A DNA stretch of 55,106 nucleotides from an uncultured bacterium (GTDB lineage: Bacteria > Fibrobacterota > Chitinivibrionia > Chitinivibrionales > JANQEN01), in assembly GCA_965372145.1 (NCBI GenBank), contig CBDVBE010000001.1:1-55106 (forward strand), given 5' to 3'. A program made the position numbers and the translations under genes. Position 1 is the first letter of the stretch; each line of letters begins with the position of its first letter. The notes under the pieces are model-generated. The model searched no databases, was not told the DNA's origin, and worked only from the letters and a program-made list of their open reading frames with translations. Shown in pieces: positions 5,393 to 49,100 of this stretch.

Positions 5393-5612
5393 GATCGGAT
5401 AAGGTCATTCTCAATATAATTCTTAAACCCTTACGATTCTTTCCCTGTATATACCTTCTCAATGCAACTGACCCTTCACTTGCACAATAAATAATAGTAA
5501 ACTTATAGTAATCCTGAAATTGGGGAGCATGATAATCCATGACGTATCGATAAGCCCTAATAATAGTATTTTTTTACCCAGGATATATGATTTTATAAAA
5601 AGGTAAGGTGCA

Positions 5613-10051: not shown

Positions 10052-10120
10052 AGAACGAAGAAGGAAAGACTGGTGTAAGAATAATAATGGTCTGATTGAT
10101 ACTTTTTGCGGAGAATCAGT

Positions 10121-12176: not shown

Positions 12177-13226
12177 ATGGAGGTTTCGGTTGATCTCACA
12201 AGGAAATGCACCCTGGATTGCCTGATGTGCTGGTGGCGCAGTCCGTTAATAAGTGAGCAGCCGGCAAAAGAGTGGCAGAACCAGGAGATGGACTTTGCCT
12301 TATTTGAAGAATTGATAAAAGATTTCAGAAAACTTAGGGTAAAAAGGGTTATTCTGGGTGGTCAGGGTGATCCCATGTTATATCCAAAGCTCTTCGAAGC
12401 TATGGAATTGGCCAAAAGAGCAGGCATTGAAGTGGCTTTAATTACGAGTGGCTTTTATCTTACCGAGAAGAAAGTACGTACACTTTATGACCTGCAGATA
12501 GATCATCTTGATGTGAGCCTTCAGGCAGCAACGTCTGAAACTTATCAGAAACTGCATCCCGGACAAAAGGAAGATTCTTTTGAACGAATAAAAAGCCGGA
12601 TTATGCAACTTTCTCATCTTAAAAAGGAGCATCAAAGGAATGTGCCGTGGATTCACATTATAAATATCGTCTGCTCATATAATTATAATGAGTGCGTAAA
12701 AATCATCGAATTCGCATCAGAAGTCGGAGCGAATTCAGTAGGATTTAAACGGGTGGATGTGGTCCCGCAAACGCAGGAGTTACTTTTGAATGAGGAACAG
12801 TTAAAAGAGGTGGAAAGGCTGTTGGATGAAGCGGAGAGAAAGGCAGACGAATTGGGAGTTGTAACGGGTATCAAGAGATTTAAGAAAATTATCCTGCCTG
12901 GTCTTACCACCGGGAGATACACAACAGATTTTTATGAACAAATTCCCTGTTATGTGGGCTGGAATTCATCACGTATCCTGGAAACCGGCGAGGTCATCCC
13001 CTGTTGCGGCTGTTATGATATAATTCTTGGAAATATTAAGCAGAATTCATTCAGAGATATCTGGTATTCAGACGCCTACAGGAAATTTCGTAAACAGTCA
13101 TTCAGTTTAGATAAAAAAGCAGTCCTTAAAGAGGGGTGCAAGTGTTTTTCCTGTGTTGATCATGGCACCAATCTGGGGATATATCGTAAGCTTCACCCAT
13201 TCAAAGCAAAAAGGCTGGGAGTATGA
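12177..13226 (+). CDS. radical SAM protein with C-terminal SPASM-like Cys cluster
   Basis: 349-aa ORF. CTLDCLMC (Cx3Cx2C), GGQGDPMLYP and C-terminal CYVGW...GEVIPCCGC...CKCFSC. The true start may lie upstream (see finding at 12101). Confidence 0.8.
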   Translation: MEVSVDLTRKCTLDCLMCWWRSPLISEQPAKEWQNQEMDFALFEELIKDFRKLRVKRVILGGQGDPMLYPKLFEAMELAKRAGIEVALITSGFYLTEKKVRTLYDLQIDHLDVSLQAATSETYQKLHPGQKEDSFERIKSRIMQLSHLKKEHQRNVPWIHIINIVCSYNYNECVKIIEFASEVGANSVGFKRVDVVPQTQELLLNEEQLKEVERLLDEAERKADELGVVTGIKRFKKIILPGLTTGRYTTDFYEQIPCYVGWNSSRILETGEVIPCCGCYDIILGNIKQNSFRDIWYSDAYRKFRKQSFSLDKKAVLKEGCKCFSCVDHGTNLGIYRKLHPFKAKRLGV

Positions 13227-17970: not shown

Positions 17971-19011
17971 ATGCAACCGCAAAAAACACTCAGTGAGTTC
18001 AAACATTATCTCGAATCATTACCGATTTTTGTGATTCTTGATACGCAGTATGCAAAAAGTAAGGATTCGGCAATTGCATCTCATAAAACCGTTGAGGCAC
18101 AGTACGCAGAACTGGTGAATAAACTGGAAGAGCTATTGCATGATAAATTACAGAATAACACACGTGATTCGGTTCGGGAGCTTCCCTTTACAACACTCTT
18201 TTCACTTGCTGATATGGTTATTTACAGTATCGTAAAATCGGGTGTTATTTTCCAACAGGTAATGAATCCTGATTATCTCTCAAATTATCTTTCCTGTCAC
18301 TCATTAAATGTAGCATTTATCAGTTGTAAGATCGGCATGGGTATGCGTTTTTCATATGAGCAGCTTGGTCAACTGGGTGTTGCAGCACTGCTGCATGACA
18401 TCGGTATGACCCAGCTCCACCCCAGTATTTATGAACATCAGGATGGCCTTTCTGCAGAAAAACGCAGAGCTATTGAGAGTCACTCATTGCTGGGTTATCA
18501 GTTTTTTGAGAAAGTGAGAGATGATTTCCCATGGCTGATGAGAGTCATTCTCGAGACACATAAACGTGAAAATAATAACGGGTATCCTGATATGGTGAAG
18601 GATGATCTGCATCTTTATTCAAAGATTATCGGAGTGGCGGATACGTTTGAGGCATTGACCCACAAAAGGTCATTCAGGAATGCTTATCATCCGGCTGATG
18701 CCATTAAAACGATTATTGACGGTAAGAAAGATTTTTTTGCTACTGATATACTTCGCGCGACAATCGAATCAATCGCGATATATCCGGTAGGAAGCCTGGT
18801 CCAGCTTAATAATAAAAACATTGCTCTGGTAATCGATACTATTGAAGGCTCTCCGATGAGGCCTTTGGTAAAAATTGTCAGTGAGGATGATCTGAACGAA
18901 ACAACAGAGCAGAAAATTATTAACTTATCAGAGGAAAATAATATCTATATTACCGGTCTGGTTTACAGCACACAATATTTAACGCCGGAAAAAATAAAGA
19001 AATTGCGGTAA
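17971..19011 (+). CDS. HD-GYP domain protein (putative cyclic-di-GMP phosphodiesterase)
   Basis: 346-aa ORF. LLHDIGM, HSLLGYQF, HKRENNNGYPD and VADTFEALTHKRSFR motifs of HD-GYP. Confidence 0.8.
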   Translation: MQPQKTLSEFKHYLESLPIFVILDTQYAKSKDSAIASHKTVEAQYAELVNKLEELLHDKLQNNTRDSVRELPFTTLFSLADMVIYSIVKSGVIFQQVMNPDYLSNYLSCHSLNVAFISCKIGMGMRFSYEQLGQLGVAALLHDIGMTQLHPSIYEHQDGLSAEKRRAIESHSLLGYQFFEKVRDDFPWLMRVILETHKRENNNGYPDMVKDDLHLYSKIIGVADTFEALTHKRSFRNAYHPADAIKTIIDGKKDFFATDILRATIESIAIYPVGSLVQLNNKNIALVIDTIEGSPMRPLVKIVSEDDLNETTEQKIINLSEENNIYITGLVYSTQYLTPEKIKKLR

Positions 19012-19038: not shown

Positions 19039-20082
19039 ATGACTAATCACTTTTTAAAGGTTCTTACCTCCGACCGGTTGTTTACCGCAGCTCATTTTAA
19101 AAATATTGATTGGCAGAAGCGGTGTAAACAGTTACGTGATGACGGTATCGCGTCTCTTTTTTATCCGAAAATTGAAAGTGTTAAAAATAATCTCCCTCCG
19201 GATATAGTACAGTTTTTCCGTACCTGCTATGAAAACGCTATAATTTTTAAAGATTTTACTGTCCAAATATTAAAAGATATCCAGCCTGCATTAAGTTCAA
19301 CCGGAACAATTGTTCTCACGCAGGGATTGGCACTCAGCGAAACCGTATATCCTGAGCCGATGTGCCGTGCCATGGGTGATGTTGATCTTTTCCTTCCTGA
19401 CGGAAATATGCGGAGGATTCGTGATATTTTTCTGGACTATGGATTTACACCGTATCGGGATTATGAGAATGTACTGGAATATAACCGGATAATGGTTGAC
19501 CTGCATGAAGGGTTGTGGGGTACTGACCGTTTTCCTCAGCGGGAGTATTTGATTCCCAGAAAGAATGTCGAATGGCAGCCGAGTAAACTCATCCCGGGTT
19601 TTTTCGTGCTGAGTCCTGAGTATTTAGCCCTGCACTGTGCGTTTCACGGGGTAAAACACGGATTCAATAAAGGGATTTGGGATTGTGATTTAGTGCGGTT
19701 GTATAACACCGGATACTTGACACCTGATGTGAAAAACCGGCAGGAATATATGATAAAGTTCATGGCCTTTGAACATCTGCGTCAAAAAAAAATATTACCG
19801 GCACAATTGACTGAGAAGAGAAAGGCATATTTATCTCCATTTACGGGGATTGCAGTCCGTGCTCTGGTTCAGCGGAGCAGCCGTCCCGGTTTTGGTCAGC
19901 TGCTGCTTGCATTTCTCTGCCCGACTTTCAAAACCGGGCTCGAATATCTTATCGCGATTGTGATCCCGCAAAAACGTATTTTGCAGCAGATGTATGGTAG
20001 ATCGATCTATCCGGTACTTGTAATGAAACGGGTATGGAATCTCATGAAATATGCGGGAATGGCAGTACTGAAATGGCGCTAA
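19039..20082 (+). CDS. uncharacterised nucleotidyltransferase-fold protein (NTP_transf_5-like)
   Basis: 347-aa ORF. MGDVDLFLP and MVDLHEGLWG carboxylate motifs are typical of the 'uncharacterised nucleotidyltransferase' family seen next to HprK-like kinases. Confidence 0.6.
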   Translation: MTNHFLKVLTSDRLFTAAHFKNIDWQKRCKQLRDDGIASLFYPKIESVKNNLPPDIVQFFRTCYENAIIFKDFTVQILKDIQPALSSTGTIVLTQGLALSETVYPEPMCRAMGDVDLFLPDGNMRRIRDIFLDYGFTPYRDYENVLEYNRIMVDLHEGLWGTDRFPQREYLIPRKNVEWQPSKLIPGFFVLSPEYLALHCAFHGVKHGFNKGIWDCDLVRLYNTGYLTPDVKNRQEYMIKFMAFEHLRQKKILPAQLTEKRKAYLSPFTGIAVRALVQRSSRPGFGQLLLAFLCPTFKTGLEYLIAIVIPQKRILQQMYGRSIYPVLVMKRVWNLMKYAGMAVLKWR

Positions 20083-20858
20083 TACTCTCTATCGGCGGTA
20101 TACCGGTCCAATTTGAAATCCGGTCAAAAGAGATGGTGTCCCGTATAACGAAGCGATATAAAGGATTCCTGCGAAAGCGGGTTACCCCGGTAGTAACCTT
20201 CCAGTGCAGCTTTGCAAAAAGGCAGGCTGTGGATACTGATGAGGTAGTTGTTACTCAGGAAGATAGTGCTACCTGGTGCATCCACCGGTCTGATTTTATC
20301 TGTACCTTTCGGGAGGCGTATGGTACGATAGAGATGCGCCGGTCTATATATTCGTTTGATGCATGTATTCGGGTTCTGTATGCCACACTTATCACACGAA
20401 ACCGCGGCTTGCTTCTCCATGCGTCCGGAGTTATGAAGAATAAAAAAGCCTATTGTTTTGCCGGGGTTTCGGGAAGCGGCAAGACAACCATTGCGCAGCT
20501 TTCAAAGGCGGTTGGTACGGTTATAAATGATGAAATAGTTGCAGTAAGGATCATGCCTGGAAATAAAGTCAGTATCTATGGGACTCCGTTCTGGGGTGAA
20601 ATGCGTACCGGCCCGGCACATAATAAAAAATGCCCATTACAAGCTATTTACTTTTTAAAAAAAGGTACAACATCATATCCGGTTGTACTTAATAAGGATG
20701 TCGCATTAGCAAAACTATTGCGCTGCTGCTGTATCTTCAGTAATGATTCCCATGATATGGACCGAATTATGAATCTGGGTATTGTTTTTGTAAAGGCTGT
20801 GCCGGTATTTGAATTACACTTTGAGAAAAGTGAGGCGTTCTGGGAAGTGATAGAATAA
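20073..20858 (+). CDS. HPr-kinase-related P-loop protein
   Basis: The ORF track opens at 20034. ATG 20073 gives a 10-nt overlap with the upstream gene. LLLHASGV...AYCFAGVSGSGKTTIAQL resembles the HprK C-terminal kinase core (H...G-x-SG-x-GK-S/T). Confidence 0.6.
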   Translation: MALILSIGGIPVQFEIRSKEMVSRITKRYKGFLRKRVTPVVTFQCSFAKRQAVDTDEVVVTQEDSATWCIHRSDFICTFREAYGTIEMRRSIYSFDACIRVLYATLITRNRGLLLHASGVMKNKKAYCFAGVSGSGKTTIAQLSKAVGTVINDEIVAVRIMPGNKVSIYGTPFWGEMRTGPAHNKKCPLQAIYFLKKGTTSYPVVLNKDVALAKLLRCCCIFSNDSHDMDRIMNLGIVFVKAVPVFELHFEKSEAFWEVIE

Positions 20859-20905
20859 GAAAACAGAAGTCTGAATAACGAATGACGAAGTCTGAATAAA
20901 GACAT

Positions 20906-21370
20906 ATGGAATCGATACATAAAAAAATGCTTCTTACAACCCTGGGAAAATGTAACACCTGTGACGTCACTGTCGGTGGCACCAGTATGTGGCCTTTTAT
21001 TCAGGATGGTGATGTGCTTTCGTTACGGCATAAGCCGTTTAAACCGCGGCTCGGTACTGTTGTCGGTTTTTTTAATGAAGATCAGCTTATTACGCACAGG
21101 ATCATCTGGTATAAAAGAAAAGGCCCACACCGGTGGGAGGTATATGTTCATGGTGATGCAAGTCCTTTTTCCCTGGCGAAAATTGATTCTGAAGAAATTG
21201 TTGGAACAGTCGAGTATGTAAAAAGGCGGAATAAAATAATAAAAAGCTGGTTTACCTATCCGCTTCAAATAGGTATCATACCAATCGGATTTTTACTGCA
21301 ATCTATAGTTGCATTAAAGATATATGCAAAGAGGAAAGAACAAAAAAGGAGAGTGAGGCAGGTAAAGTAA
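20906..21370 (+). CDS. S24/S26-family (signal-peptidase/LexA-like) serine peptidase with C-terminal TM helix
   Basis: 154-aa ORF. GGTSMWPFIQDGDVL matches the G-x-S-M-x-P nucleophile motif. A hydrophobic segment (IGIIPIGFLLQSIVAL) lies near the C-terminus. Confidence 0.55.
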   Translation: MESIHKKMLLTTLGKCNTCDVTVGGTSMWPFIQDGDVLSLRHKPFKPRLGTVVGFFNEDQLITHRIIWYKRKGPHRWEVYVHGDASPFSLAKIDSEEIVGTVEYVKRRNKIIKSWFTYPLQIGIIPIGFLLQSIVALKIYAKRKEQKRRVRQVK

Positions 21371-23220
21371 TGTGTGGTATTGTCGGCATGGTTGGCGGCG
21401 GCAGCAGGGAACTGCTGCAGAAGATGTGTGATTGCATTAGGCACCGGGGGCCGGATAGCGAAGGTGTTTACAGCAAGGATGAGATACATTTTGGTATGAG
21501 ACGTCTGGCAATTATTGACCTGTCCGGAGGCACACAGCCAATCTACAATGAAGATAGGACACTGGTCATTACCTTTAATGGAGAAATTTATAACTATCAG
21601 CCCCTGAAAAAAGACCTCGAAGAAAAGGGGCATACCTTTACAACAAATTCAGATACAGAAGTTATACTGCACCTCTATGAGGAAGAGGGCGAAAAGTGTC
21701 TTGAAAAATTAAACGGTATGTTTGGCCTTGCTATCTGGGATTTAAAGAAACGCGAATTGTTTCTGGCGCGGGACCGGCTGGGTATCAAACCGGTCTATAT
21801 ATTTGAGAAAGATGGATTTCTCGCGTGGGCCTCGGAGTTAAAGGCACTTACACTACTACCGCAGGTTTCAAAGGAATTGGATATTCAAGCACTGCAAACC
21901 TACCTGCACGTTCTCTATATTCCTGCACCGTATACAATTTATACCGGTTGTAAAAAATTGAGAGCAGGCTACTGGCTTAAATGGAAAGACGGCACGGTAA
22001 CGCAACAACGATACTGGCAGCCTTCAGGTGCGGTACTATCTGATATATCGGTACAGGATGCTGTGGAAGCAGTGCGGGAAAAACTTACCCAGGCGGTTAC
22101 GCGGAGATTGATAGCAGAGGTACCGCTTGGCGCCTTTTTAAGCGGCGGTCTTGATTCAGCATCCATTGTTGCTTTGATGAGCCGTGTGTCTGATAAGCCG
22201 GTCAAAACATTTACCATGGGATATGCAAAGGAATATGCATCCTATAATGAGTGGGACAAAGCGCGGCTGGTAGCGCAGACTTTCGGCACAGAACATCATG
22301 AATATGTTGTTGAACCTGATATCGTTGATCTGGTGCCGAAAATTGTCAATAGCTTTGACGAACCTTTTGCTGATTCATCGTCTATACCTACCTACCTCGT
22401 TAGTCGTGAGACTCGACAAGAGGTGACTGTCGCACTTTCCGGGATCGGAGGAGATGAGGCATTCGGCGGGTATCCCCGTTATCTTGGCGCGGCCATGTCC
22501 ATGGGTTACCAGGCATTGCCGATGATTGTGAGAAAGATGTTTGCTTCTTTGTCTCACTGTATACCACAGCGCCCGACAGCTACCAATTATGGCGGAAGGA
22601 TAAAACGATTTTTACAGGGAGGTGTAGCAGATCCCCTGTCGCGGTATTTACAGTGGATAAGTTATTGTGATGATGCGATGCAATCGGCACTGTTTCAAAA
22701 TCCTTTACAGGGACAACCATATACGTTACACCGGCAGGCATGGCAGCAATCGCCGTATAAGGATTATCTGCGCAGGATCCAGTATCTGGATACGAGTACC
22801 TATATCAGTGATGATCTTCTCTGTATGGGAGACCGCATGTCAATGGCGCATTCCCTGGAACTCAGGGTACCGTTCTGTGACCATGAACTGGTTGACTTTT
22901 CTCTTTCTCTGCCGCCAGAATTGAAAATGCAGGGTAACACACTTAAATTCCTGTTGAAAAAAGCTATGAAAGGTATATTGCCTGAACAATTACTCCATGC
23001 CCGAAAACAGGGATTTATGGTTCCCCTTGCAAGCTGGCTTGCAAAAGATTTACAAAAGTACAGCCTGGATATCTTAGAACCGGATAAAATTGACAAACAG
23101 GGAATATTCAGAGGAGAAACAATTCGGAAGCTGGTAACACAGCAGGCCCGGGGCGAGTATCATCTTACCCATCTGGTGTGGGCCCTGCTAATCTTTCAGG
23201 TGTGGAACGAAAACAGTTAA
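21370..23220 (+). CDS. asnB: asparagine synthase (glutamine-hydrolysing)
   Basis: 616-aa ORF. N-terminal MCGIVG (Ntn-glutaminase Cys), HRGPDSEG, and the PP-loop LSGGLDSASI. Its start overlaps the stop of the upstream gene. Confidence 0.9.
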   Translation: MCGIVGMVGGGSRELLQKMCDCIRHRGPDSEGVYSKDEIHFGMRRLAIIDLSGGTQPIYNEDRTLVITFNGEIYNYQPLKKDLEEKGHTFTTNSDTEVILHLYEEEGEKCLEKLNGMFGLAIWDLKKRELFLARDRLGIKPVYIFEKDGFLAWASELKALTLLPQVSKELDIQALQTYLHVLYIPAPYTIYTGCKKLRAGYWLKWKDGTVTQQRYWQPSGAVLSDISVQDAVEAVREKLTQAVTRRLIAEVPLGAFLSGGLDSASIVALMSRVSDKPVKTFTMGYAKEYASYNEWDKARLVAQTFGTEHHEYVVEPDIVDLVPKIVNSFDEPFADSSSIPTYLVSRETRQEVTVALSGIGGDEAFGGYPRYLGAAMSMGYQALPMIVRKMFASLSHCIPQRPTATNYGGRIKRFLQGGVADPLSRYLQWISYCDDAMQSALFQNPLQGQPYTLHRQAWQQSPYKDYLRRIQYLDTSTYISDDLLCMGDRMSMAHSLELRVPFCDHELVDFSLSLPPELKMQGNTLKFLLKKAMKGILPEQLLHARKQGFMVPLASWLAKDLQKYSLDILEPDKIDKQGIFRGETIRKLVTQQARGEYHLTHLVWALLIFQVWNENS

Positions 23221-38607: not shown

Positions 38608-41503
38608 ACACCTTTCCTTCATTTGAGGTAAAAACAACAACACCGTTGGCAACATCTACTGTAGGTGAATTTGGTATTGTCCCGCCGGCTGTTTTCGGCC
38701 AACCCGTTTTGGCGGCCATTGTTGCAACGTCAACTGCATATACTTCGCCATCATCATCACCAAAGAATGCGGTGCCGGCGGATGTTACGACAGGCATGGA
38801 ATTGATGGTATTTGCAGGAGTAGAATATGTTCCGGCGACGGACCCGTCGCTGGAGTTCATTTTTTTCAGATTGGTCCCGGCACCGACATAGATATAAACG
38901 CCCTGCCTGAATGCTGCACTGGTTGTCGTAGCAAGTAAATCATCAGAGGTCCAGGCGGTACCCATAGTTGACAAATTCACTGCATAGACATAATTATCAT
39001 TTGATGCAACGTACATTATGTCAGACCATGCGTTAAGTGATATATTCGCATTAGGTGCATGGGCATTACTGCTCTGGTACGTATTATCAACAGCATACTT
39101 TTCTACATTGCCGGTCACGGGAAAATAGACATAAGAGGCCTCTACAATTGCAGAGGAAGTGGCAATCGGTGAATTGCTTTCAATAGTCCATGCGATACCA
39201 CCATCACTGGTTGATACTTTATAGGAATCGCCATTGAAAGTCAGGTACAGATAATCCCCGTCAGTTGACAGGATAGGATCAGACATATCAGTTGCTGTTC
39301 CCCAATCCACATAGTCGAATTTTGATTCGGCTGAAGAGCCATTATCCCAGACTGCGCCGATTTGAGCTTTGTGATTGGTGTAGTATATGGCATATTTCCC
39401 CTGAGCAGAGTGATAGTAAAGACAAAGATTCGTTACAAAACCGCCTTGTGCTCCACTGGCATCGTATGACCATTTTTCCGTGCCGTTGTCAATATCATAA
39501 CTGTAAATAGTTTGCTGGGCGCCCACGTATACAACTCCGTCGCCGATAACCGGTGATGTACAGGGACTGATTACACCGGAGATCCATAACGCACTACCGG
39601 TGGTAAATGAATAATCAGAAGAGACGGTTCCGGTGTTGCCGTAACTGTCACGTGCATTTACCCGCCAGGAGTATGTGCTGCCGGCCGCAAGTTCCGACGT
39701 CTGCCAGGTGGCTCCGCTCTGCCAGCCGCTGTTTGCAATGGCTGTGACAAACGGGTCGGCATCGTCTAATTCAATATAGTATTCTATTGTGGATATATCG
39801 CTTGCAGTGCTGCTGGTCAGCACGGGCTGAATGGAGGTGTTGGTTGCCGCATCTGACGGGGAACTGCAGCCGTAGCCGGTCGGGTCCGCATTGTCAAGAA
39901 CAAATGCCGTGGAGGTCGTTGCGTTGCCGGTATTAGCCGAGGCATCTTTTGGCGTGATACGGATATAGAACGTTGCATCTTCAGTGGTTGAGACGTCAGT
40001 CTCATTACTGCCGTTCTGGCTGTCCCATACAAAGGTGACATTGCTCTGATTGGTACTGATAGTGTGAATCTGCCTGGTGGCAGTTCCTCCACTGACACCG
40101 GTATTATCGATTGTTCCGACAGAGGCGCTGCTGATATACGCCTGGTAGTATGTAGAATTGTCAGCCGAGTATTCTATAAGAAGTTCACAATTCTCAGGTG
40201 CCTGAGGATCGCTGAGGTCATACTGAACCGTCACAAGGCCGGTGCCGTTGGTAGCATGGGTGACATTGTCAATAACAACGCTGGGCTTAACATTCGAAAC
40301 GGTAAAATTATAGATTGAGGAATAGGCGGTTTCATTGCCATAGAAATCTTTAACTTTAACACGCCAGTAGTACGTCTGACTTACACTCAGGCCGGTTGCA
40401 ACCCAGTCGGGATCGGCGCTCTGCCAGCCGCTGTTTGCAATGGGGCTGCTGCAATCCGAATCAGTATCGATTTCCAGGTAGTAAGAAATTGTGCTGGCAT
40501 CGCTGGCTGTCGCTGAAGTAAGCGTTACATCAGGGCCGCCCGGGGAAGAGCCGATAGTCGGTGTACTGCAGGCCCAACCGGTAGGGTCCTTGGTATCGAT
40601 AACAAAATTGTTCGATGAAAATTTTAATGTGTCGGTAAGCGGGATTGCGTTTACCGCAATAATCTGCATGTTATAATTTGAGACTTCCGTTGGAGTGGCA
40701 AGCTGGGTTGCGGCGTCCCAGATAAGCTGGCGGTTTGTTCCCGGATTGTCAGCATTAACCGATCCTTCACCGGTAAGAGTGGCATCGGTACATGCAACAA
40801 AGGCGGAACCGTTCCAGTACTCTGCCTTTATCGTTACGTCCGAATAGTCATCGTCAGAGATCCGGTAATTCATCTCAACGTCCCCGGACCCGTCTGTCCG
40901 CTGAAAGCAGGTGGCGCTGGTAAAGGATTCGGCCGTATTGGTATCAACCAGTGTTGGCGGACCCGTATAGGTTACAATAACCTCCAGATGATCCACATCG
41001 ATCTGGCTCCAATCCACTCCACCGGAAGCAACCGCTTTACAGCCACATCGAACATCATCAATATCAGTCCACGTCCATGCACCTCCGCCTGGTTTTTCTG
41101 TAAAGTCAGCTGAATAATAGGCGTATGAGGTGTTTAATTCATGAACTGTGCCATCCAGGAGAGGGTCATAAATCAATTCTATTCTAACCTGAATGCCTTC
41201 GCTGGTTCCGGAAAGATTAATATCGGCCTTCGCATATAAGCGGACAGTAATCTTGGCGATGGTTCCAACGCCGCCTACATGGTTTTCAATCGGCACATCG
41301 AGTAGATCACTTTTTGTTGTTGTATAGGCAGCAGTACCGCCTGTTTCAGAACAATCAGTACCGACATCGGTGCCGCCGGTGTTAAAGTCGTTATCCGGAC
41401 CTTCTCCGGTTCCCGCATCCAGGGTCATTGTAGATGCAAAGGGAGATAATACGGCAAGTAAAGAGATGAGAGTGATTGTAATAACGAATTTTTTCATATT
41501 CAT
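38588..41503 (-). CDS. large secreted protein: two tandem (Ig/FN3-like + FN3-like) module pairs plus C-terminal PQQ-like beta-propeller
   Basis: 971-aa ORF. Signal peptide MKKFVITITLISLLAVLSPFAS. An internal ~100-aa repeat (D.(K/A)DPTG..CS.P...(L/I)E(I/L)D...IANSGWQS...Y.WRV...D.YGN) occurs twice. The C-terminal third has propeller-type repeats. No T9SS CTD is present. It overlaps the next gene by 20 nt. Confidence 0.8.
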   Translation of the reverse strand: MNMKKFVITITLISLLAVLSPFASTMTLDAGTGEGPDNDFNTGGTDVGTDCSETGGTAAYTTTKSDLLDVPIENHVGGVGTIAKITVRLYAKADINLSGTSEGIQVRIELIYDPLLDGTVHELNTSYAYYSADFTEKPGGGAWTWTDIDDVRCGCKAVASGGVDWSQIDVDHLEVIVTYTGPPTLVDTNTAESFTSATCFQRTDGSGDVEMNYRISDDDYSDVTIKAEYWNGSAFVACTDATLTGEGSVNADNPGTNRQLIWDAATQLATPTEVSNYNMQIIAVNAIPLTDTLKFSSNNFVIDTKDPTGWACSTPTIGSSPGGPDVTLTSATASDASTISYYLEIDTDSDCSSPIANSGWQSADPDWVATGLSVSQTYYWRVKVKDFYGNETAYSSIYNFTVSNVKPSVVIDNVTHATNGTGLVTVQYDLSDPQAPENCELLIEYSADNSTYYQAYISSASVGTIDNTGVSGGTATRQIHTISTNQSNVTFVWDSQNGSNETDVSTTEDATFYIRITPKDASANTGNATTSTAFVLDNADPTGYGCSSPSDAATNTSIQPVLTSSTASDISTIEYYIELDDADPFVTAIANSGWQSGATWQTSELAAGSTYSWRVNARDSYGNTGTVSSDYSFTTGSALWISGVISPCTSPVIGDGVVYVGAQQTIYSYDIDNGTEKWSYDASGAQGGFVTNLCLYYHSAQGKYAIYYTNHKAQIGAVWDNGSSAESKFDYVDWGTATDMSDPILSTDGDYLYLTFNGDSYKVSTSDGGIAWTIESNSPIATSSAIVEASYVYFPVTGNVEKYAVDNTYQSSNAHAPNANISLNAWSDIMYVASNDNYVYAVNLSTMGTAWTSDDLLATTTSAAFRQGVYIYVGAGTNLKKMNSSDGSVAGTYSTPANTINSMPVVTSAGTAFFGDDDGEVYAVDVATMAAKTGWPKTAGGTIPNSPTVDVANGVVVFTSNEGKVYAYPVP

Positions 41504-41519
41504 TAATTAATATATTGTG

Positions 41520-41675
41520 TTACGATGTTGACGGCAGCCTGAAGCAGGCATGCTGCTTATGCGGTCCAGTACGGCATTTTCCGCAGGCTAGTGCACGGCG
41601 TTCGAATATCTCCTCAGATTCGACATCAGGAGGAGAGTAGACCGGTTTTTTAACGGGTTTTTCGTTTTTTTTCAT
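41520..41675 (-). CDS. candidate 51-aa Cys/His-containing small protein (hypothetical)
   Basis: Hand translation gives MKKNEKPVKKPVYSPPDVESEEIFERRALACGKCRTGPHKQHACFRLPSTS. It is too short for the ORF track. The stretch is GC-rich in an AT-rich spacer and ends 16 nt before the start of the 971-aa gene on the same strand. Confidence 0.3.
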   Translation of the reverse strand: MKKNEKPVKKPVYSPPDVESEEIFERRALACGKCRTGPHKQHACFRLPSTS

Positions 41676-41834
41676 AAATAGTCTTACGTAACGTTAATGA
41701 AATGAAGTAGTTACAAGAAATATATATAGTGCTATATATCTATAATACTTAATTATATACCCATTTGCGGGGATTGTCTAGTAAAAACAAAAAGTCATTG
41801 GTATAGAATTTTATTAGTAAAAGAGTATTTATTT

Positions 41835-42070
41835 GGAGGAGGAAGCCGCAAGCGCATCTGCCACTGGCAGATGTGCTCCCTAAGCGGAGCTAAGTCTCGT
41901 TTCGAATAAAAGACTGTAACATTCCACCTGTTTTCATTATTCATTCAACCAGTCGGAATTAACAGCCGTTAATTCGTTACTCAACTGGATCTCCGCTTAC
42001 CCCCTCGCAATTTATATGTCTGGTCGTTTGGCCAGACACAAACCTGTAGTGGCTCAACATGTTGAACCCT
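41835..42070 (+). other. candidate structured RNA or regulatory region in a 750-bp spacer
   Basis: Several helices are visible.
- Hairpin 41852-41876 with a G-U pair possible only in plus-strand RNA.
- Long-range TAAGCGGAG (41881-41889) / CTCCGCTTA (41991-41999) enclosing two hairpins: 41893-41915, and 41949-41988 with an inner perfect 8-bp GAATTAAC/GTTAATTC stem.
- Hairpin 42018-42037.
- A 12-bp perfect palindrome TCAACATGTTGA (42054-42065). Confidence 0.25.
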
Positions 42071-42285
42071 GATAAAAGCGTTACAACAGAATAAAGTGGT
42101 TGAAAAAAGAGAGTGGTGGCATATAATGAATAAAAGGGGTATAATTAAAAGAAAATTAAAATTAAAAAATGTCTCATGCGTTATGAACTTTTTTTTGTTA
42201 TATTATTATCATGTAATAGATGGATGAAAAAGGGTATTAATTTACCAATAATTTGTCCACATTTATTCATGAAATGGAGTTTGAG

Positions 42286-44052
42286 ATGAATATTTTAAAG
42301 ATTTTCTTTTTAGGGCTTTTTATTTCTGCAAATCTCTTTGCACAAACAACAACACTCACTCTTCAGAATGGCAACAGTGGTTACAATGGCTGTTCTGATG
42401 CTCATATTTGGGATGGATATCACAATTCCTCACTAAATAGTGAAAACTATGGTGACGAGGAAGATTTAATAGAGTTCTTTGGTAATGACGGTAGTTACCT
42501 CAATCCGGGATCCCGCTGATGTGAATCTGAGGCCCGGGTGGTCATTAAATTCGATCTTTCAGACATTCCTGAAGACGCTATTCTTGAAGGAGCTGTTTTA
42601 AGTCTGTATGTATATAAGGGATATGATTCATGGGACAACGGCCTTAAAACCCTTCATGAAATAACTAGTAGTTGGGATGAAAGCAGTGTGACATGGAATT
42701 CTAAACCAAGTAATAATTCTTCGAAAATTGCAGAATGCAACAGCAGTTCCATAAATGTATGGGAAGACTACGATGTAACTGGTGAAGTCAAGGATATTGT
42801 TGAAAACAGCAAAGATAATTACGGTTTTATGCTAATATACGGTGATTATTACACGGGAGCCCATTTCCGTTCATCAGAATATTCATCCACAGAGTACAGG
42901 CCAAAACTTACAGTAACTTATCTCGGAGATGAAGCCTTTCTTGAAATTAAATCACCCAATGGCGGTGAAGAGATCGAACAGAACAGTACTTGTATTATTG
43001 AATGGGCTGATAATATTGATGGTGATGTAAAAATTGAACTTTATCAGAACGGTAATTTCATAGAAACTATTGCTGATGCAATTGAAAGTAATGGCTCATA
43101 CGATTGGCTGGTACCAATTGGTGTAACACCGGGAGACGGTTATTCGATAAAAATCATTAGTGTAGATAGCACTGGCCTTGTAGATGAAAGTTCTCAACCG
43201 TTTAGTATTTTGAGTGAAGTTTTTATTTCTGAATTCCCCTATATACAGAATTTTGATAACATGGATACTGTCAACAGCAGAGACCTTTCTGAGAATTGGA
43301 AACAACTTACTAATGATGACATTAATTGGAAAGTCCACACTGGCCCGACGCCATCCAAAGTGGGTAGTGATCCTGATAAAACCGGCCCGGACGCTGATCA
43401 TACCTCAGGTAATGGCAATTATGTTTATATAGAGGCATCTGATCCAAATAATCCCGAAAAGAAAGCCACTATTATTACACCAAAGTTTAAAATAAGCGGG
43501 CTGGTCAATCCTGAATTTGTAATATGGGCGCATATGTTCAGTGCAGATAATCAAATGGGAGATCTGTACGTTGACATAAATGTTGATGGTACTTTGTACA
43601 ATGATGTGATTCATCTCACCGATGATCATGGTGATGACTGGTTTGAAGTAAAACAGTCTCTTTCTGAGTATCAAGGGGAGCGTGTACAATTCATTTTTCG
43701 TGGTATAACAGGAACTGGCTGGTGCGGTGATATCTGTATTGATGATTTTTTTATTGACGCGTCAACTGAAGTTACGACGAATGTAAAAATACCGGGACAT
43801 TGTAACGTTACATTTTGTGGTTCACGGATAAATTTCCATTTGCCCGAGTCAGATAATAACACACGGCGACATGTCAGTATGAAAATATATAATCTTCAGG
43901 GAAAAATGATCGCTACATTGTTTAATGGTCACCTCTGTTCCGGACACCATTCAGTAAATCTGGATAAGTTTAACAGGATAGGTAGTGGTGCCTATATCTG
44001 TAAGATAAAAACAGAAGGTTACAATAAAAGTTTGTCCATAATTAAACAATAA
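42286..44052 (+). pseudogene. T9SS-sorted surface protein (DNRLRE-like domain + Ig-like domain + MAM domain + CTD) interrupted by one in-frame TGA
   Basis: ORFs 42253-42519 and 42538-44052 are in the same frame, separated only by TGA 42517-42519. Likely start is ATG 42286 (GGAG 5 nt upstream), giving the signal peptide MNILKIFFLGLFISANLFA. VIKFDLSDIP...SSWDESSVTWNSKP is DNRLRE-like. NWKVHTGPTPS...GPDADHTSGNGNYVYIEAS...CIDDFFI is a MAM signature. The C-terminal KIYNLQGKMIATLFNG...GAYICKIKT is T9SS CTD-like. Confidence 0.65.
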
Positions 44053-44081
44053 ATAAAAATACATCCGTTTAAAAAATGGTT

Positions 44082-44118
44082 AAAAAGCTACCGTTCTTAA
44101 CGGCAGCTTTTTTTGTTT
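44082..44118. terminator. bidirectional intrinsic terminator
   Basis: AGCTACCGTT-ctt-AACGGCAGCT (10-bp stem, one mismatch), flanked by AAAAA upstream and TTTTTTTGTTT downstream. It sits between convergent transcription units. Confidence 0.7.
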
Positions 44119-44378
44119 GGTTCACTATTAAAAGTCAGTTTTCATACCCAAATTATGCAGTAGAAACGGAGTACACTAATGCATAATCTGGGATTAATTT
44201 TACCGGATTTAAAGGATTCTGATGAACACATCGCTATAAAATAAGTTTTTTTATAAACCATTTTTTCAGTATTAAAACATAAAGGATTTGTGTGTCACGG
44301 CCTTCAGACCGTGTGTTTTTGTTTTATAATCCAATGTTATGTGAAGTTGTCCTATAGGGGGATGCGTCTTAATTATTG

Positions 44379-45413
44379 TTACGATAAGGCTAATCGTCCT
44401 ATTGCCTCTGCCCTCTCACACAAACTCGGACTCTTCCCTTTCCACAATCCTGTTTCCAGAAACGCGAAACCGTGGCAGCGTGAACAGGCGTTTTTTATAG
44501 TACAGGAGACACACTCTTCAGCAAGCGTCTTTTCATCAGCTCTGAATTGACCGGCTTTATCACTGTGCCAGATTGTTTTAAAGGGTGTGTCAACAAGATT
44601 GCCGAATAGTATCGGCAGGATAATACAGGGATAGACATCGCCGTTCGGTGCAATACCGCAAAGACTTCTTCCTGCATCGCAATGGAGCGCTGACTCGTCA
44701 CGGGTTGTGCTGCATGAGGTTATTGGTTTGATGCCCATATCTTTGAGAAAGGTGCGCTGCTGCTCTCTGGAAAGGGCATAGGGAGATATGGTTTTCCGTT
44801 CAGAGGGAAGTATGCCGGAGTCGCATTCGAATCCGCAGCCCTCTTCATCGGCGATTTTTTCCAGCATAGTATATTCACCGAAGTTTGCACTGGAAACCGA
44901 GTGCTTGATAAGAACTTTAACACCCTGTGCGGTCAGCAGCCGTATTGCCTGCAGTGCATCGTTGAAACTGCCGATAGCGCCGCTGAGTTCATCATGCAGA
45001 ATAGCATTAGCGGCATGCAGACTGATACCGACATCCATGACCCCGAGGTCAGCCAATCCGGCTGCCCATTCCCGGGTGATCAGCAGCCCGTTGGAAATAA
45101 TACTCACTGCAAAGTCATGTTTGCGGGTGCTTGCAAGGATCTCAAGAAAATCATCCCGTAAAAACGGTTCCCCGCCGGAGAACGTGATATAGAGTGTTCC
45201 CATTTCAGCAAGCTGCTTGAGCACGGTGCGCCATTGCTGCAGGGTGAGTTCTGGCTGCTGTGGGTAGGAAGCCTGGTAGCAGTAGTAACAGTGCAGGTTA
45301 CAGTGGTGAGTCAGCTCGATAAACACACTAAGGGGAATAAGCTTTTTCGCGGCTTCGAGGTTTATCTGCTGGGCTATTGTTTTTTCGGGCATAGTGGTTC
45401 TGGATGCTGTCAT
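44379..45413 (-). CDS. radical SAM / SPASM-domain peptide-modifying-type enzyme (PqqE-like)
   Basis: 344-aa ORF. CNLHCYYC (Cx3Cx2C), FSGGEPFLRDDF, and C-terminal CDAGRSLCGIAPNGDVYPC...CVSCTIKNACSRCHG. An alternative start at 45392 (MPEK) would keep the ATG outside the palindromic element. Confidence 0.85.
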   Translation of the reverse strand: MTASRTTMPEKTIAQQINLEAAKKLIPLSVFIELTHHCNLHCYYCYQASYPQQPELTLQQWRTVLKQLAEMGTLYITFSGGEPFLRDDFLEILASTRKHDFAVSIISNGLLITREWAAGLADLGVMDVGISLHAANAILHDELSGAIGSFNDALQAIRLLTAQGVKVLIKHSVSSANFGEYTMLEKIADEEGCGFECDSGILPSERKTISPYALSREQQRTFLKDMGIKPITSCSTTRDESALHCDAGRSLCGIAPNGDVYPCIILPILFGNLVDTPFKTIWHSDKAGQFRADEKTLAEECVSCTIKNACSRCHGFAFLETGLWKGKSPSLCERAEAIGRLALS

Positions 45414-45486
45414 TGCGAGGAGTGTAACGACGAAGCAATCTCGCTATTGTTTAAAAATGGGATTGCCGCGCTTTGCTCGCAATGAC
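45409..45486. repeat. palindromic element between pqqD-like and rSAM genes
   Basis: GTCATTGCGAG (45409-45419) / CTCGCAATGAC (45476-45486) is a perfect 11-bp IR. The inner arms carry ATTGC...GCAAT(C) mini-hairpins. Confidence 0.75.
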
Positions 45487-45490
45487 ACTA

Positions 45491-45784
45491 TCAATTTTCC
45501 TCTTGTTCTACCTCAACCAACTTTTTTTCTAATAATTTCTCAACAAAAACAGTAATATCGTCCGTCAACTTTTCCTCATCAACACCATCAAATTGAGTTT
45601 TGATAGCCTCACAAATCTCATCCGCGGTTTTGGGTGTTTCCAGCAGTTGCCATATAAAGGTACCCACTTCATTAAATCGATGGAGCATGCTGTCCCGCGG
45701 TGTTATCACCAGCATCCGCTCTTCGAACAGCCGTTGTGCGACATTGTCCGCCCGAACAATGGCGGCATTTTTTTCACTAGTCAT
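45491..45784 (-). CDS. PqqD-family (RRE-type) peptide chaperone
   Basis: 97-aa ORF. LVITPRDSMLHRFNEVGTFIWQLL...TADEICEAIKTQFD...DDITVFVEKLLEKKLV follows the PqqD pattern. GAGGA lies 6 nt upstream of the ATG. Confidence 0.7.
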   Translation of the reverse strand: MTSEKNAAIVRADNVAQRLFEERMLVITPRDSMLHRFNEVGTFIWQLLETPKTADEICEAIKTQFDGVDEEKLTDDITVFVEKLLEKKLVEVEQEEN

Positions 45785-45884
45785 TCGTAATCCTCACAGT
45801 TAGTGGGGGTAGTAAAAAATCCAGCATTTCATCTTACCGGTACGAGCGAAATGAAATGCTTAGCTTTTGCTAGGGGGAAACTTC

Positions 45885-46058
45885 CCCATTGGCGCTAACT
45901 TTAGATTTACAAAGCCCCAAAACTGAGGGGAAATATCGAATATTGAATATCGAATGATGAATTTTGAAGTTTTTAAATCTTTATTTTTATTCATTATTCG
46001 AAATTCATCATTCGATATTCAATATTTTCTTTAAAAGAAAGTTTAAGTTAGCGCGTAT
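45885..46058. repeat. long palindromic element with a 26-bp perfect core IR
   Basis: AATATTGAATATCGAATGATGAATTT (45939-45964) and its exact reverse complement (46001-46026). The outer imperfect arms share AAGTTAGCGC. Confidence 0.85.
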
Positions 46059-46118
46059 GGGAAACGTCCTCCACAAAATAGTTATATCTTTTTTTACAAG
46101 AGTTATCTTTATAATAAT

Positions 46119-49100
46119 ATGAATGCCGATTATACTGCAATAAAAAAATTCTGTAAGCGTCACCGGTTTATTTTTGTCACGGCACAGGTCATCAACGCGT
46201 GGCTGCTGTTTTCCGGGATACTCTTCGGGCTTGGGGCAGCCTGTACTGTCGGGTTTGCTTTTTTCCCCTGGACCGTGCTGCCGGTTATATTTGATCTTGC
46301 GTTGGTACTTACCGTTTTTGCCTGTATGATACTACTGATTAACCGGGCTGTTATCCGTTTGCCGAAGCTCGATGTTATTGCAGCGATCCTGGAAAAAAGG
46401 AATGCAGTTGTACACCAATATGTTTCGATAGCTCTGGAGCTTGGGCGGACAGTATCCGGAGGCTCCTCACAGCTTGTTGATTATGTGTGTGCTGCGGCTC
46501 GAAAATCATTCGGCACTTATCCGAAACGAATCACCGGTGTCATTTCCCGAAAAAGAGTTGTGATTTTTTGTATAACCATTGTTACATTTGCCGGTGCCAC
46601 CTATGTCTGTACACCGCGAATGCTCAAATGGTGGGATATCCCGCTGTCGCTGTTTGCACAGGTTTCTGCAACGGTGTACCCGGGTACCATCACAGTCCCC
46701 AGAAATGCGCAGGTGATACTGAGTTGCATACCGCTGGAAACAGTATACCCCTCAGCAGCAGTGTCGCTCGTGAACCTGTCTCTTCATAGTGCTCCCAGGA
46801 CACGGCACCTCCTCCGCCCGGACATGAACGGCAGCTTTACCTATACCCTCGATTCGCTTGCCACATCGTATGCTTATACGTTTACCTTAGGAAAGGAGGC
46901 GTTCGGGCCGGAGACGGTAACCGTGGTGCCGCCGCCGATACTGTACTCGCTGCAGGTAACGCTCACCCCGCCGCGATATACCCGGCGGAAACAGGTGCGG
47001 TTGCAGGAAGGACAGGGATCGATTGCCGCGTATGCCGGTACGCGCGCACACTTTACTATCGGTTCTTTATATCCGTTGCAGTCGGCGCAGTTTATCCCCG
47101 AGCATGGCGACACCGTACCGTTTACCATTAAAGAGGGCATAGCAGCAGGTGAAGTACGACTCTGGCGCCCTGGCAGATACACCTTTACCCTTGAAGATTC
47201 CCTCTTGCAGCAGAGTGATTCACTTCCGTCATTTTATATCAGCCTTCTTCCCGACTATGAGCCGAATGTCCGTATTGTAAAGCCCGGGGTGAATGCAATG
47301 CTTGCGCCTGCGCAGCAGGAAACCCTGTGGGTGGAGGCGGTCGATGACTTCGGTATACGGGAGTTGAAGCTCGCCTGGAAGGTGTCGCATGATGACGTTG
47401 ATACGGTCTACGCGAGGAATATTTTACAAAAAGGGAAGAACCGGAAACTGATCCGCAGGCAGCTGGCATGGGACCTGTCCGACTTGTCTCTCTACCCCGG
47501 TGATACGGTGTTTTACTGGGTCCGTACCCGGGATAATAAACCGTACGGAACACCGCAGGTATGTGTCAGTGATACCTTCTATTTCCGCCTGCCGACCTTT
47601 GCAGAAATTCATAAACGCATTGCCGGCAGGGAAGATGACGCGGAAAAGGCTCTTTCATCAGTACAGAAACTACAGGAAAAGATGGAGAAACGGCTTGAAG
47701 ACCTGATAAAATCGGCAAAGGGGAAAGAATCACTCTCGTGGGAAGAGAAGAAAATCGTTGAAGACCTGGGAAAGAATATGCAGGAGCAGGCTGATTCATT
47801 GACCAAAGCGGTAGAGGCCCTGCAGGAAGCTGTTGAGAAAATGAGGGAATCGTCGGTAAGCAGTGAGATTCTTGACAAGATGGATGAAGTGCAGAAAACA
47901 TTACGGGAGCTGATTGAAGAGTACGGTGACAGCCTGTTGTTTCAAGCGCCGAAGCCGGATGAAAAGTTGAGCTGGCGGGATATGAAAAATGCGGTTGAGA
48001 AAATGACGGAAATGCTTCCCGATCTGAAGGACAGACTTGATAATGCGCTGAAATATCTTGAGATGCTGAAAAAGGAGAATGAGCGTGCGCTTCTTGCGCA
48101 GCAAGCGAGAAAACTTGCCGAACAGCAGATGCAGATCGCGCAGTCAAAGGATGCTGAAAATAAACAGCTCTGCAGGCAGAAGGATTTATCACAAAAAATT
48201 AAAGAGCTTCTTGATAAGCTGCGGGACAAATTGGACGATGATAGCCCAGTCGGATTAAAAGATATTCCTTCGCACCAGCAGGTTGATAAACAGCAGAAAG
48301 CTATGCAGAAGCAGCTCGCTGCACAAAATATGCCGGGTATGAGTGCAATGAACCGGATGAGTGCAGGATTGCAGTCGATGTCTGAAGAGCTGGAATCCAC
48401 GCTCAGCAGTGTTATGGCGGCAAAGGCTATGCAGGATCGGGAGACCCTGCTGGATATGGCGCAGGATGGCCTTAACCTTTCCCAGTGGCAGGAGTGGCTG
48501 AAACAGTCCATGGGTGGTTCTATTGATAAGAAACTTTCGGCAGCGGAACAGCAGGCACTGAAAGAAGCTTTACGGACCAGCATGAAAAAACTTGACAGTC
48601 TGCAAGCTGTCCCGCCCGCTCTGCTTCAGAAGATTCAGGGTGATGCCGGCAAAGCCATGCAGGCAATGAACGGCGCCTTACAGTCGATGAGCGGCAGTAG
48701 GCCCGGGTCCGGTATGAAACAGGCGGTGAACGGCCTTAACGCGTTGACTGAGACGCTGCTCTCCTCTGCCAACAGTATGCAGCCGGGGAGCGGCGGGCAG
48801 GGAGGTACCGGCAGTATGATGGGCGGATTACGCAAACTTTCCGCGAAGCAGGCTGCTATTAATTCAGCCACGGCTGAACTGCTGCGTCAGATGTTCTCAC
48901 AGTCAATGAAAGAGGGTGGCAGCGGGTCGCAGATGGGACAGAATGCCGAGGCCGCCCGAAAAGCAGCCGGGCGCGCACAACGCCGGCTAGCGGACCAGCT
49001 TGAAGAGTTGGGTGAAAAGTATGGGGACGGTGCTGGGAAAGGGCTGGCAAAACGGGTAAAGGAGCTTGAGAAGGAGGCACGGCGTATTGCAAAGATGCTT

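Follow-up and report, generated by a model that had tools for sequence, protein, structure and literature searches.

The closest described relatives of the system reported here are the linear polyphosphorylated peptide (LPP) clusters of Bacillota, which encode a precursor peptide, an HprK-like kinase, a discrete recognition element (RRE) for peptides made by the ribosome and modified after translation (RiPPs), a SipW-like signal peptidase I, an exporter and a nucleoside triphosphate (NTP) transferase (Popov et al. 2026, Nat Commun, PMC13381572). In Paenibacillus alginolyticus these genes are lppA-K-B-S-D-N, and the clusters lie within capsule loci. The LPP leader follows the consensus YxxPxVLxHQxIxFETxxS and is cut after T-1, which requires F-3, E-2 and T-1; the RRE presents the cut site to the peptidase, and Ser3 of the core is polyphosphorylated. 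LPPs were called restricted to Bacillota, the paper never uses the word 'radical', and the role of LPPs is given there as an open question (PMC13381572). In lasso peptide pathways, the C-terminal Ser of the precursor is phosphorylated by HPr-kinase homologues (PMC8498205). Here we analysed a 55,106-nt stretch of DNA (the window; contig CBDVBE010000001.1) from an uncultured bacterium of the order Chitinivibrionales (Fibrobacterota), which carries a PqqD gene followed by a gene for a radical S-adenosylmethionine (rSAM) enzyme with a SPASM domain. We consider it likely that this pair provides recognition and radical chemistry in a split RiPP system whose substrate is a conserved 51-residue peptide encoded downstream, and we read the whole as a split, rSAM-bearing variant of the LPP systems.

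The PqqD and rSAM/SPASM open reading frames (ORFs), first named in a sequence-only reading of the window, were both upheld by Pfam (Table 1). The top NCBIfam matches of PqqD were ScmD (1.5e-10) and lasso_PqqD_Bac (1.4e-8), both below their cutoffs, and its best match among solved structures was LppB (9x8z, 1.1e-5), with the lasso RREs TbiB1 and PbaB1 ranking behind. The rSAM ORF is open to position 45413 (44379-45413, minus strand, 344 aa); because orthologues begin with MPEKTIAQQ or MPDKTIAQQ, the true start is probably the ATG at 45392. No NCBIfam model matched the rSAM protein at its cutoff, the best being AhbD (136 bits, cutoff 500), MftC (123, cutoff 265) and PqqE (122, cutoff 381). The CxxxCxxC motif and six of the SPASM cysteines were invariant among 30 orthologues. 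In the AlphaFold2 model (predicted local distance difference test 92.4) the barrel starts at residue 22, without a fused RRE. Foldseek ranked SuiB, SkfB, PqqE, CteB and anSME as the top structures, and by sequence as well as by fold the nearest solved structures were peptide-modifying SPASM/twitch enzymes (SuiB, SkfB, PqqE, CteB). Five related genomes encode orthologous rSAM proteins with 73, 61, 52, 52 and 51% identity, the first of them belonging to the same genus (G001). The bidirectional terminator that had been read after the rSAM gene also held up as a terminator-like hairpin scoring on both strands. The 98-nt spacer between the PqqD and rSAM genes is occupied by a perfect 11-nt inverted repeat (45409-45486; GTCATTGCGAG ... 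CTCGCAATGAC, arms 56 nt apart); in relatives, the two genes abut in one genome (G002) and are separated by a different repeat in another (G003).

The candidate substrate, MKKNEKPVKKPVYSPPDVESEEIFERRALACGKCRTGPHKQHACFRLPSTS, is the product of a 51-codon ORF on the minus strand, 2.7 kb downstream of the PqqD-rSAM pair. Its leader/core boundary, predicted from LppA, gives RALACGKCRTGPHKQHACFRLPSTS as the predicted core. The YxxP motif runs from Y13 to P16, and the cysteines are C31, C34 and C44. The peptide was also found downstream of the PqqD-rSAM pair in four other genomes (G001, G002, G003 and G012) and in two metagenome contigs. When ten orthologous loci, taken from five related genomes and metagenome contigs, were searched by tblastn with the 51-aa peptide, nine gave matches (1e-20 to 5e-29). 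Across 81 genomes of the order, the peptide occurred in seven and an rSAM orthologue (E below 1e-50) in six, and all six of these carried the peptide; in the seventh peptide-bearing genome, a contig break lies immediately upstream of the peptide gene. Over the last 39 codons of the peptide, 1030 synonymous and 437 non-synonymous codon differences were counted among 11 loci, and differences at codon positions 1, 2 and 3 numbered 463, 252 and 1328, with the third position thus dominating. These counts indicate that the peptide is translated and under strong purifying selection. Its AlphaFold2 model shows no fold and no secondary structure (predicted template modelling score 0.25), and therefore fits an extended precursor better than a mini-protein. 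The sequence-only reading had listed this ORF separately, as a possible metal-binding peptide, and never linked it to the PqqD-rSAM pair.

The interval between rSAM and peptide was compared among the relatives. In one genome (G002) the peptide begins 184 nt past the rSAM stop. In the window, a gene for cargo of the type IX secretion system (T9SS) on the opposite strand sits between the two and is an insertion; as had been noted from the sequence, a T9SS cargo gene neighbours the pair, the plus-strand gene 42538-44052 carrying a T9SS sorting tail. This cargo gene (42253-44052, plus strand) consists of two same-frame ORFs split by an in-frame TGA at 42517-42519 (...GSR-stop-CESEARVVIKFDLS...), for which a sequencing error, recoding or a nonsense mutation may account, and it is not found at the rSAM-peptide position in relatives. 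Elsewhere the gap holds a gene for an AAA_14/DUF4143 ATPase (G003) or an HD-GYP gene (G012). In G010 an AAA_14/DUF4143 gene also lies upstream of the peptide, and in G040 one lies downstream of the rSAM gene. At the level of loci, this gene was seen within or next to the cassette of three Chitinivibrionales genomes (L029, 8259-9626; L043, 283-1101; L031, approximately 5330-5560) and at eight Elusimicrobia loci. It could represent repeated insertion or an unrecognised accessory gene.

The peptide belongs to a previously undescribed precursor family, in which a YxxPxV...FE(T/R) leader is followed by ALACGKC..GP..Q.AC......S. Neither the peptide nor any of 91 family members matched a model in Pfam or NCBIfam. 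The peptide has 16 close protein clusters, and a profile built from 18 peptides retrieved 90 representatives of 43-88 aa from 1.84 billion proteins. A degenerate DNA pattern for FExxALACGKC, searched in GTDB contigs with one genome per species, gave 95 loci against approximately one expected by chance according to our own estimate. Most of these loci were from Elusimicrobiota, the others including Armatimonadota, Fibrobacterota and Firestonebacteria. Among 170 distinct peptides, the leader positions Y (97%), P (99%), S/T-E (94%) and F-E (89% and 98%) were strongly conserved. In the core, A-L-A (94%, 98% and 86%) is followed by C-G-K-C (86-100% over A-L-A-C). Cysteines were placed at 0, +3 and +13 in 110 of the 170 peptides, a tail of 21 residues counted from the first Cys was present in 109, and 164 (96%) ended in Ser. 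The core was near-invariant from Elusimicrobiota to Fibrobacterota.

The genes surrounding the peptide recur as well, members of the family having PqqD and an orthologous rSAM gene as neighbours in Elusimicrobiota, Armatimonadota, Fibrobacterota and Firestonebacteria. Of 80 pattern loci examined, 50 carried an rSAM gene homologous to that of the window (1e-33 to 1e-116) and 59 a PqqD gene. Where 2.5 kb or more flanked the peptide on both sides (21 loci), the corresponding numbers were 18 for rSAM, 19 for PqqD, 15 for an HprK-like kinase and 16 for a small S24/S26-like peptidase. The gene order in Elusimicrobia is HprK-like kinase, PqqD, peptide, peptidase and rSAM; the compact cassette is also present in the cultivable Elusimicrobium minutum. 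In five Armatimonadota genomes without an adjacent rSAM gene, an orthologue was found on another contig at approximately 1e-110, paralogues scoring 1e-39 or weaker. In a Fibrobacteria metagenome-assembled genome (L122), kinase, peptidase and peptide are contiguous, the peptidase directly upstream of the peptide. The sequence-only reading had taken a PqqD protein followed by a SPASM rSAM enzyme as the signature of RiPP-type maturation; this interpretation is borne out by a conserved precursor that co-occurs with the pair, by the adjacency of the three genes across phyla, and by the peptide-modifying enzymes to which the rSAM is structurally closest.

In the window, the kinase and the peptidase are encoded more than 20 kb away from the peptide, in a plus-strand operon that starts with an HD-GYP gene and an NTP_transf_5 gene (Table 1). 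The window as a whole thus holds both a probable substrate gene and a protease gene, which the sequence-only reading had missed, and its picture of a minimal two-enzyme pathway has to be enlarged by the HprK-like kinase, the NTP transferase and the SipW-like leader peptidase (19039-21370). The kinase of the window matched that of an Elusimicrobial cassette (phmmer, 3.6e-24), and its Walker A motif, GxSGxGKT, is invariant. Of the seven genomes of the order that bear the peptide, six had a kinase orthologue (E≤1e-42); the other 74 had none, only paralogues at approximately 1e-12, located beside other rSAM genes. In the peptidase, Ser27 and His64 were invariant among eight homologues and Asp84 was present in seven. 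The order HD-GYP, NTP_transf_5, HprK-like kinase and signal peptidase I-like protease is kept in G001, G002, G003 and G012, while G010 has kinase and peptidase. The HD-GYP gene keeps its place upstream of NTP_transf_5 in relatives and has an uncertain part in the system. Proteins of the HD-GYP (HD_5) or HDOD type, including one STAS fusion, were seen repeatedly beside parts of the cassette (17971-19011 in the window; L032, 7897-9252; L105, 20-1690; L076, 82-936), which hints at a link to cyclic di-GMP (c-di-GMP) signalling. The AsnB gene that follows shares base 21370, through its start codon, with the end of the peptidase gene; its product reached 592 of the 817 bits that the XrtA/PEP-CTERM amidotransferase model demands, and a Wza-like gene stands there instead in G010 and G012. 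Together, the genes of the proposed system exist, are co-distributed and lie adjacent to one another across phyla, with the peptide under purifying selection and the catalytic motifs intact.

Table 1. Features of the window bearing on the PqqD-rSAM pair and its candidate substrate
Feature	Coordinates	Strand	Remarks
HD-GYP-type (HD_5) protein, first gene of the accessory operon	17971..19011	+	Pfam HD_5 4.2e-17
NTP_transf_5 nucleotidyltransferase (LppN-like), 347 aa	19039..20082	+	PF14907 2.8e-25
HprK-like P-loop peptide kinase (ScmC-like), 274 aa	20034..20858	+	HprK_rel_B 1.2e-7, ScmC 4.9e-7; neither reaches its cutoff
SipW-like (archaeal-type signal peptidase I, S24/S26) leader peptidase, 154 aa	20906..21370	+	TIGR02228 6.2e-8, below cutoff
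AsnB	21370..23220	+	TIGR01536 (asn_synth_AEB) 509 bits, above the cutoff of 267
Precursor peptide gene, 51 aa, predicted leader MKKNEKPVKKPVYSPPDVESEEIFER and predicted core RALACGKCRTGPHKQHACFRLPSTS	41520..41675	-	conserved downstream of PqqD-rSAM
Promoter-like site TAGACA-17-TATAAT	41752..41780	-	11/12 consensus matches, approximately 77 nt upstream of the peptide ATG; a consensus match only, such sites being as many in the region as expected from shuffling
Bidirectional terminator-like hairpin, end of the PqqD-rSAM transcript	44082..44112	both	14-bp stem and T run on the minus strand; plus strand scores too
Mini-ORF 2, 39 codons	44142..44261	-	chance ORF in AT-rich 3' spacer; no Pfam/NCBIfam match
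Radical SAM/SPASM peptide maturase, 337 aa from the probable start	44379..45392	-	Radical_SAM 2e-26, SPASM 1.1e-13
PqqD-family RRE protein (discrete), 97 aa	45491..45784	-	Pfam PqqD 6.9e-16
Mini-ORF 1, 10 codons (MKCWIFYYPH)	45800..45832	-	chance ORF outside the system; no conserved counterpart at orthologous loci

From these genes we infer every chemical step of the following pathway, as well as its biological role. By analogy with LppB and the lasso RREs, PqqD would bind the leader via the YxxPxV motif and hand the peptide to the rSAM enzyme, which would modify the invariant Cys-bearing core ALACGKC...C. Thioether bridges derived from the cysteines would be the likeliest product, the most economical guess given three invariant Cys and few conserved aromatic residues. 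PqqD would also hand the peptide to the SipW-like peptidase, which may cut after F-E-(T/R) as LppS does. A cut between ALA and C, in keeping with the -3/-1 rule of signal peptidases, was considered too and placed second to the F-E-(T/R) site, since LppS requires F-3, E-2 and T-1. The HprK-like kinase would phosphorylate a Ser, for which the near-invariant C-terminal Ser appears to be the best candidate since HPr-kinase homologues phosphorylate the C-terminal Ser of lasso precursors, and the NTP_transf_5 enzyme may extend this phosphate. As the whole genome contains only two PqqD genes, the second of them in a paralogous cluster on another contig (C2), the single PqqD of the window most likely serves the rSAM enzyme, the peptidase and perhaps the kinase.

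Two kinds of alternative substrate were weighed against the 51-aa peptide. The sequence-only reading had proposed one of the two mini-ORFs as the substrate of a minimal two-gene pathway, with the caveat that both could be chance ORFs. They are present as it described them, the 10-codon ORF stopping 15 nt before the PqqD ATG; both lie on the same strand as the pair and inside the likely transcript, and the longer one contains a Cys. However, the comparison of orthologous loci, which that reading had itself suggested, revealed no conserved small ORF at either position, even in the same-genus G001. Nothing better than E=0.1 was obtained with the mini-ORFs in the ten-locus tblastn search described above, where the best match of the 39-codon ORF (E=0.14), like the others, was never at the syntenic place. 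Moreover, the 10-codon ORF offers no space for a leader, neither product contains a YxxP motif, and ORFs of such size abound, with 99 of at least 30 codons in a 10-kb stretch. The caveat was thus apt, and we regard a mini-ORF as substrate as almost certainly wrong. The other alternative assigns the 51-aa product to the downstream secreted-protein operon, as a small metal-binding (Cys/His) or regulatory protein in its own right, and has the PqqD-rSAM pair act on a different target, for example a larger protein, a sugar or a cofactor. The peptide stop indeed precedes the gene of a 971-aa secreted protein by 17 nt in the window's genome (G000) and in G003, and by 13 nt in G010; the peptide has a CxxC...C pattern, a promoter-like site of its own and a conservation far beyond what a RiPP core would lead one to expect, the top NCBIfam scores of the rSAM protein include those for AhbD and NirJ2, which are cofactor enzymes, and DegT precedes PqqD in some relatives. 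The downstream neighbour nevertheless varies (971-aa protein, lipoprotein or PorV-like protein), whereas the association with PqqD and rSAM is constant over four phyla, and in Elusimicrobia the peptide is flanked by PqqD on one side and by peptidase and rSAM on the other. Its leader bears the RRE-binding YxxP motif, and the AhbD and NirJ scores amount to about one quarter of their cutoffs and cover the generic rSAM half only. A metal-binding mini-protein was rejected as a reading of the peptide, since its His residues are not invariant and no fold is predicted. We therefore judge an independent protein to be very improbable.

A third alternative retains the gene set and changes the chemistry: the rSAM enzyme might catalyse epimerisation, C-C cross-linking or Cys oxidation/desulfurisation, or the peptide might give rise to a redox cofactor, like pyrroloquinoline quinone (PQQ) or mycofactocin, for the neighbouring PQQ-like beta-propeller proteins. 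A discrete PqqD together with a SPASM rSAM enzyme without fused RRE is the layout of PqqD/PqqE and MftB/MftC, with MftC and PqqE among the best NCBIfam matches; the invariance of the core across phyla suits a cofactor more than an antibiotic, no exporter was found, and PQQ_2 beta-propeller proteins come after the peptide in Fibrobacterota. On the other hand, three invariant Cys and few conserved aromatic residues favour sulfur-linked bridges, the beta-propeller neighbours are missing from Elusimicrobia and Armatimonadota loci, PqqE and MftC score far under their cutoffs, and the kinase, the signal peptidase-like protease and the NTP transferase are without counterpart in the PQQ and mycofactocin pathways. 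This alternative is unlikely in our view, albeit not negligible. Several observations also weigh against the split RiPP system that we favour. Conservation of the core is far above that usual for RiPP natural products, and core position 3 is Leu, so that the phosphorylation site of LPPs, Ser3, is absent. Given its own promoter-like site and its position 17 nt upstream of the 971-aa gene, the peptide could serve that operon instead. Every NCBIfam match of the kinase, the peptidase and the rSAM enzyme falls below the curated cutoff, and NTP_transf_5 was found in none of the 80 Elusimicrobial locus stretches examined. No dedicated exporter was found, consistent with the earlier remark that a transporter is lacking, the only ABC_membrane/MsbA-type gene of the genome being located on contig C178. 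Finally, the parts are dispersed over 27 kb and both strands in this window, and co-regulation is for this reason unproven.

An Rfam scan of positions 41400-46200 returned only sub-threshold eukaryotic noise. Upstream of the promoter-like site of the peptide, a GC-richer stretch of approximately 260 nt (41800-42060, minus strand) stands out from the AT-rich spacer around it; it has no Rfam match.

A paralogous cluster in the same genome (contig C2, 6966-9791) contains genes for an HprK-like protein, PqqD, an rSAM/SPASM enzyme, a signal peptidase I-like protease and a 55-aa precursor with a K-Y-E-K-P-V-I leader and a Ser-Ser end, with NTP_transf_5 genes opposite. It differs from the system of the window in being contiguous rather than split, in its unrelated core, in its rSAM enzyme (26% identical), and in having a flagellin neighbour instead of a polysaccharide locus. 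Compact paralogous clusters of this kind (HprK-like, usually PqqD, rSAM) were found directly downstream of flagellin genes on C2 (L152, 6966-11035) and in three other Chitinivibrionales genomes (L020, L146, L147, L149), the cluster at L020 encoding a 58-aa precursor.

In Chitinivibrionales, the system brackets a locus for polysaccharide export and biosynthesis, which includes a Wza-like exporter, a Wzc-like chain-length/kinase protein, Wzy_C, STAS, glycosyltransferases and DegT. Downstream of the peptide lie genes for PorV-like and large secreted beta-propeller proteins, and the neighbours of the Elusimicrobia cassettes include pilin-like proteins and an Rrf2 regulator. Two more rSAM/SPASM genes (10106-11131 and 12177-13226, plus strand) lie among the methyltransferase and glycosyltransferase genes of the glycan locus, with no PqqD gene beside them; their best matches, to tungsten-cofactor maturase and Geo_metal models, were below cutoff. 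Judged by its setting, a locus for polysaccharide and cell-surface functions, the system may act in envelope or biofilm biology. Since neither an exporter nor an immunity gene is conserved, and the core changes little from phylum to phylum, we speculate that the product acts in the envelope, in biofilm or in signalling rather than as an antibiotic. In the same sense, the near-invariance of the core and the recurrent links to polysaccharide, T9SS and c-di-GMP genes point to a housekeeping or signalling role rather than to warfare. A more specific proposal, which we consider a long shot, starts from a mature product with thioether bridges that is conserved across phyla: the NTP transferase would add sugar to the phosphate on its C-terminal Ser, perhaps with a contribution from the ligase-like Wzy_C protein of the surrounding locus, and the peptide would serve as primer, anchor or checkpoint for exopolysaccharide or cell-surface assembly and not as an antibiotic. 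If true, this would tie a RiPP directly to envelope polysaccharide biogenesis and c-di-GMP control. Irrespective of role, an orphan PqqD-rSAM pair gains a concrete candidate substrate, one that cluster-based genome miners would miss because the parts can lie 20-25 kb apart or on different contigs.

Among systems with rSAM enzymes, SynChlorMet (ScmC TIGR04249, ScmD TIGR04248, ScmE TIGR04250, ScmF TIGR04251) shares with the window an HprK-like protein, a PqqD homologue and a PqqE-like rSAM/SPASM enzyme, and ScmC, ScmD and ScmE were among the top NCBIfam matches of kinase, PqqD and rSAM, respectively. The scores remained far from the cutoffs, however (ScmD, 41.1 vs 100; ScmE, 98.7 vs 400; ScmF, 80.8 vs 400; ScmC, 29-41 vs 125, with 29.4 for the kinase of the window), and the system described here has one rSAM enzyme rather than two, a SipW-like peptidase, and a distribution over different phyla. 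The maturases of sactipeptides and ranthipeptides (SkfB, CteB, AlbA, PapB), SuiB and PqqE resemble the rSAM of the window in the CxxxCxxC core and the full SPASM domain, and the candidate substrate of the latter is likewise Cys-bearing and has a leader. With the exception of PqqE, they have a fused N-terminal RRE, while here the RRE is a separate PqqD protein. On the curated maturase models, the window rSAM scored 86 bits on SkfB (cutoff 300), 88 on AlbA (850) and 105 on StsB (625), and an Elusimicrobial rSAM homologue scored 44 on PapB (340). With regard to PQQ, PqqD scored 24.1 against a cutoff of 46 and PqqE remained as far from its cutoff as stated above, the peptide has no E-x3-Y, and neither PqqB nor PqqC is encoded nearby. 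For mycofactocin, the exact MftC score was 122.9 against 265, and the peptide ends in PSTS instead of GVY. The phosphorylated lasso peptides paeninodin and pseudomycoidin are similar in that a PqqD-type RRE recognises a [Y/W]xxP leader, and, as seen in 96% of family members, the peptide here ends in Ser. In contrast to lasso systems, there is no B2 cysteine protease, the adjacent AsnB scored 247 bits on the lasso-cyclase model where 525 are needed, and core positions 7-9 lack the Asp or Glu that a macrolactam would need.

The resemblance is closest to the LPP systems. Both have a discrete PqqD-type RRE (that of the window matches LppB best in the PDB), together with an HprK-like kinase, a SipW-like peptidase, an NTP_transf_5 enzyme and a setting in polysaccharide loci. 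The catalytic residues Ser27/His64/Asp84 of the peptidase correspond to S29/H68/D93 of LppS, and the leader of the window combines YxxPxV with an F-E-R triad (F-E-T in Elusimicrobia) at the predicted cut, albeit with a spacing that is two residues shorter and without HQ. LPP cores are variable, whereas the core here is near-invariant, with three Cys and a terminal Ser. Unlike in the Bacillota clusters, the genes are split over 27 kb, and the window is without an MsbA-like exporter. The family described here occurs in Fibrobacterota, Elusimicrobiota, Armatimonadota and Firestonebacteria, and includes an rSAM enzyme, of which LPP clusters have none; the combination of the LPP toolkit with a radical SAM/SPASM enzyme and a Cys core was absent from Pfam, NCBIfam and the literature searched. 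A toolkit described in 2026 as confined to Bacillota is thus found in at least four other phyla, joined to radical chemistry and a Cys-bearing core, and the family provides a second handle on the role of LPPs.

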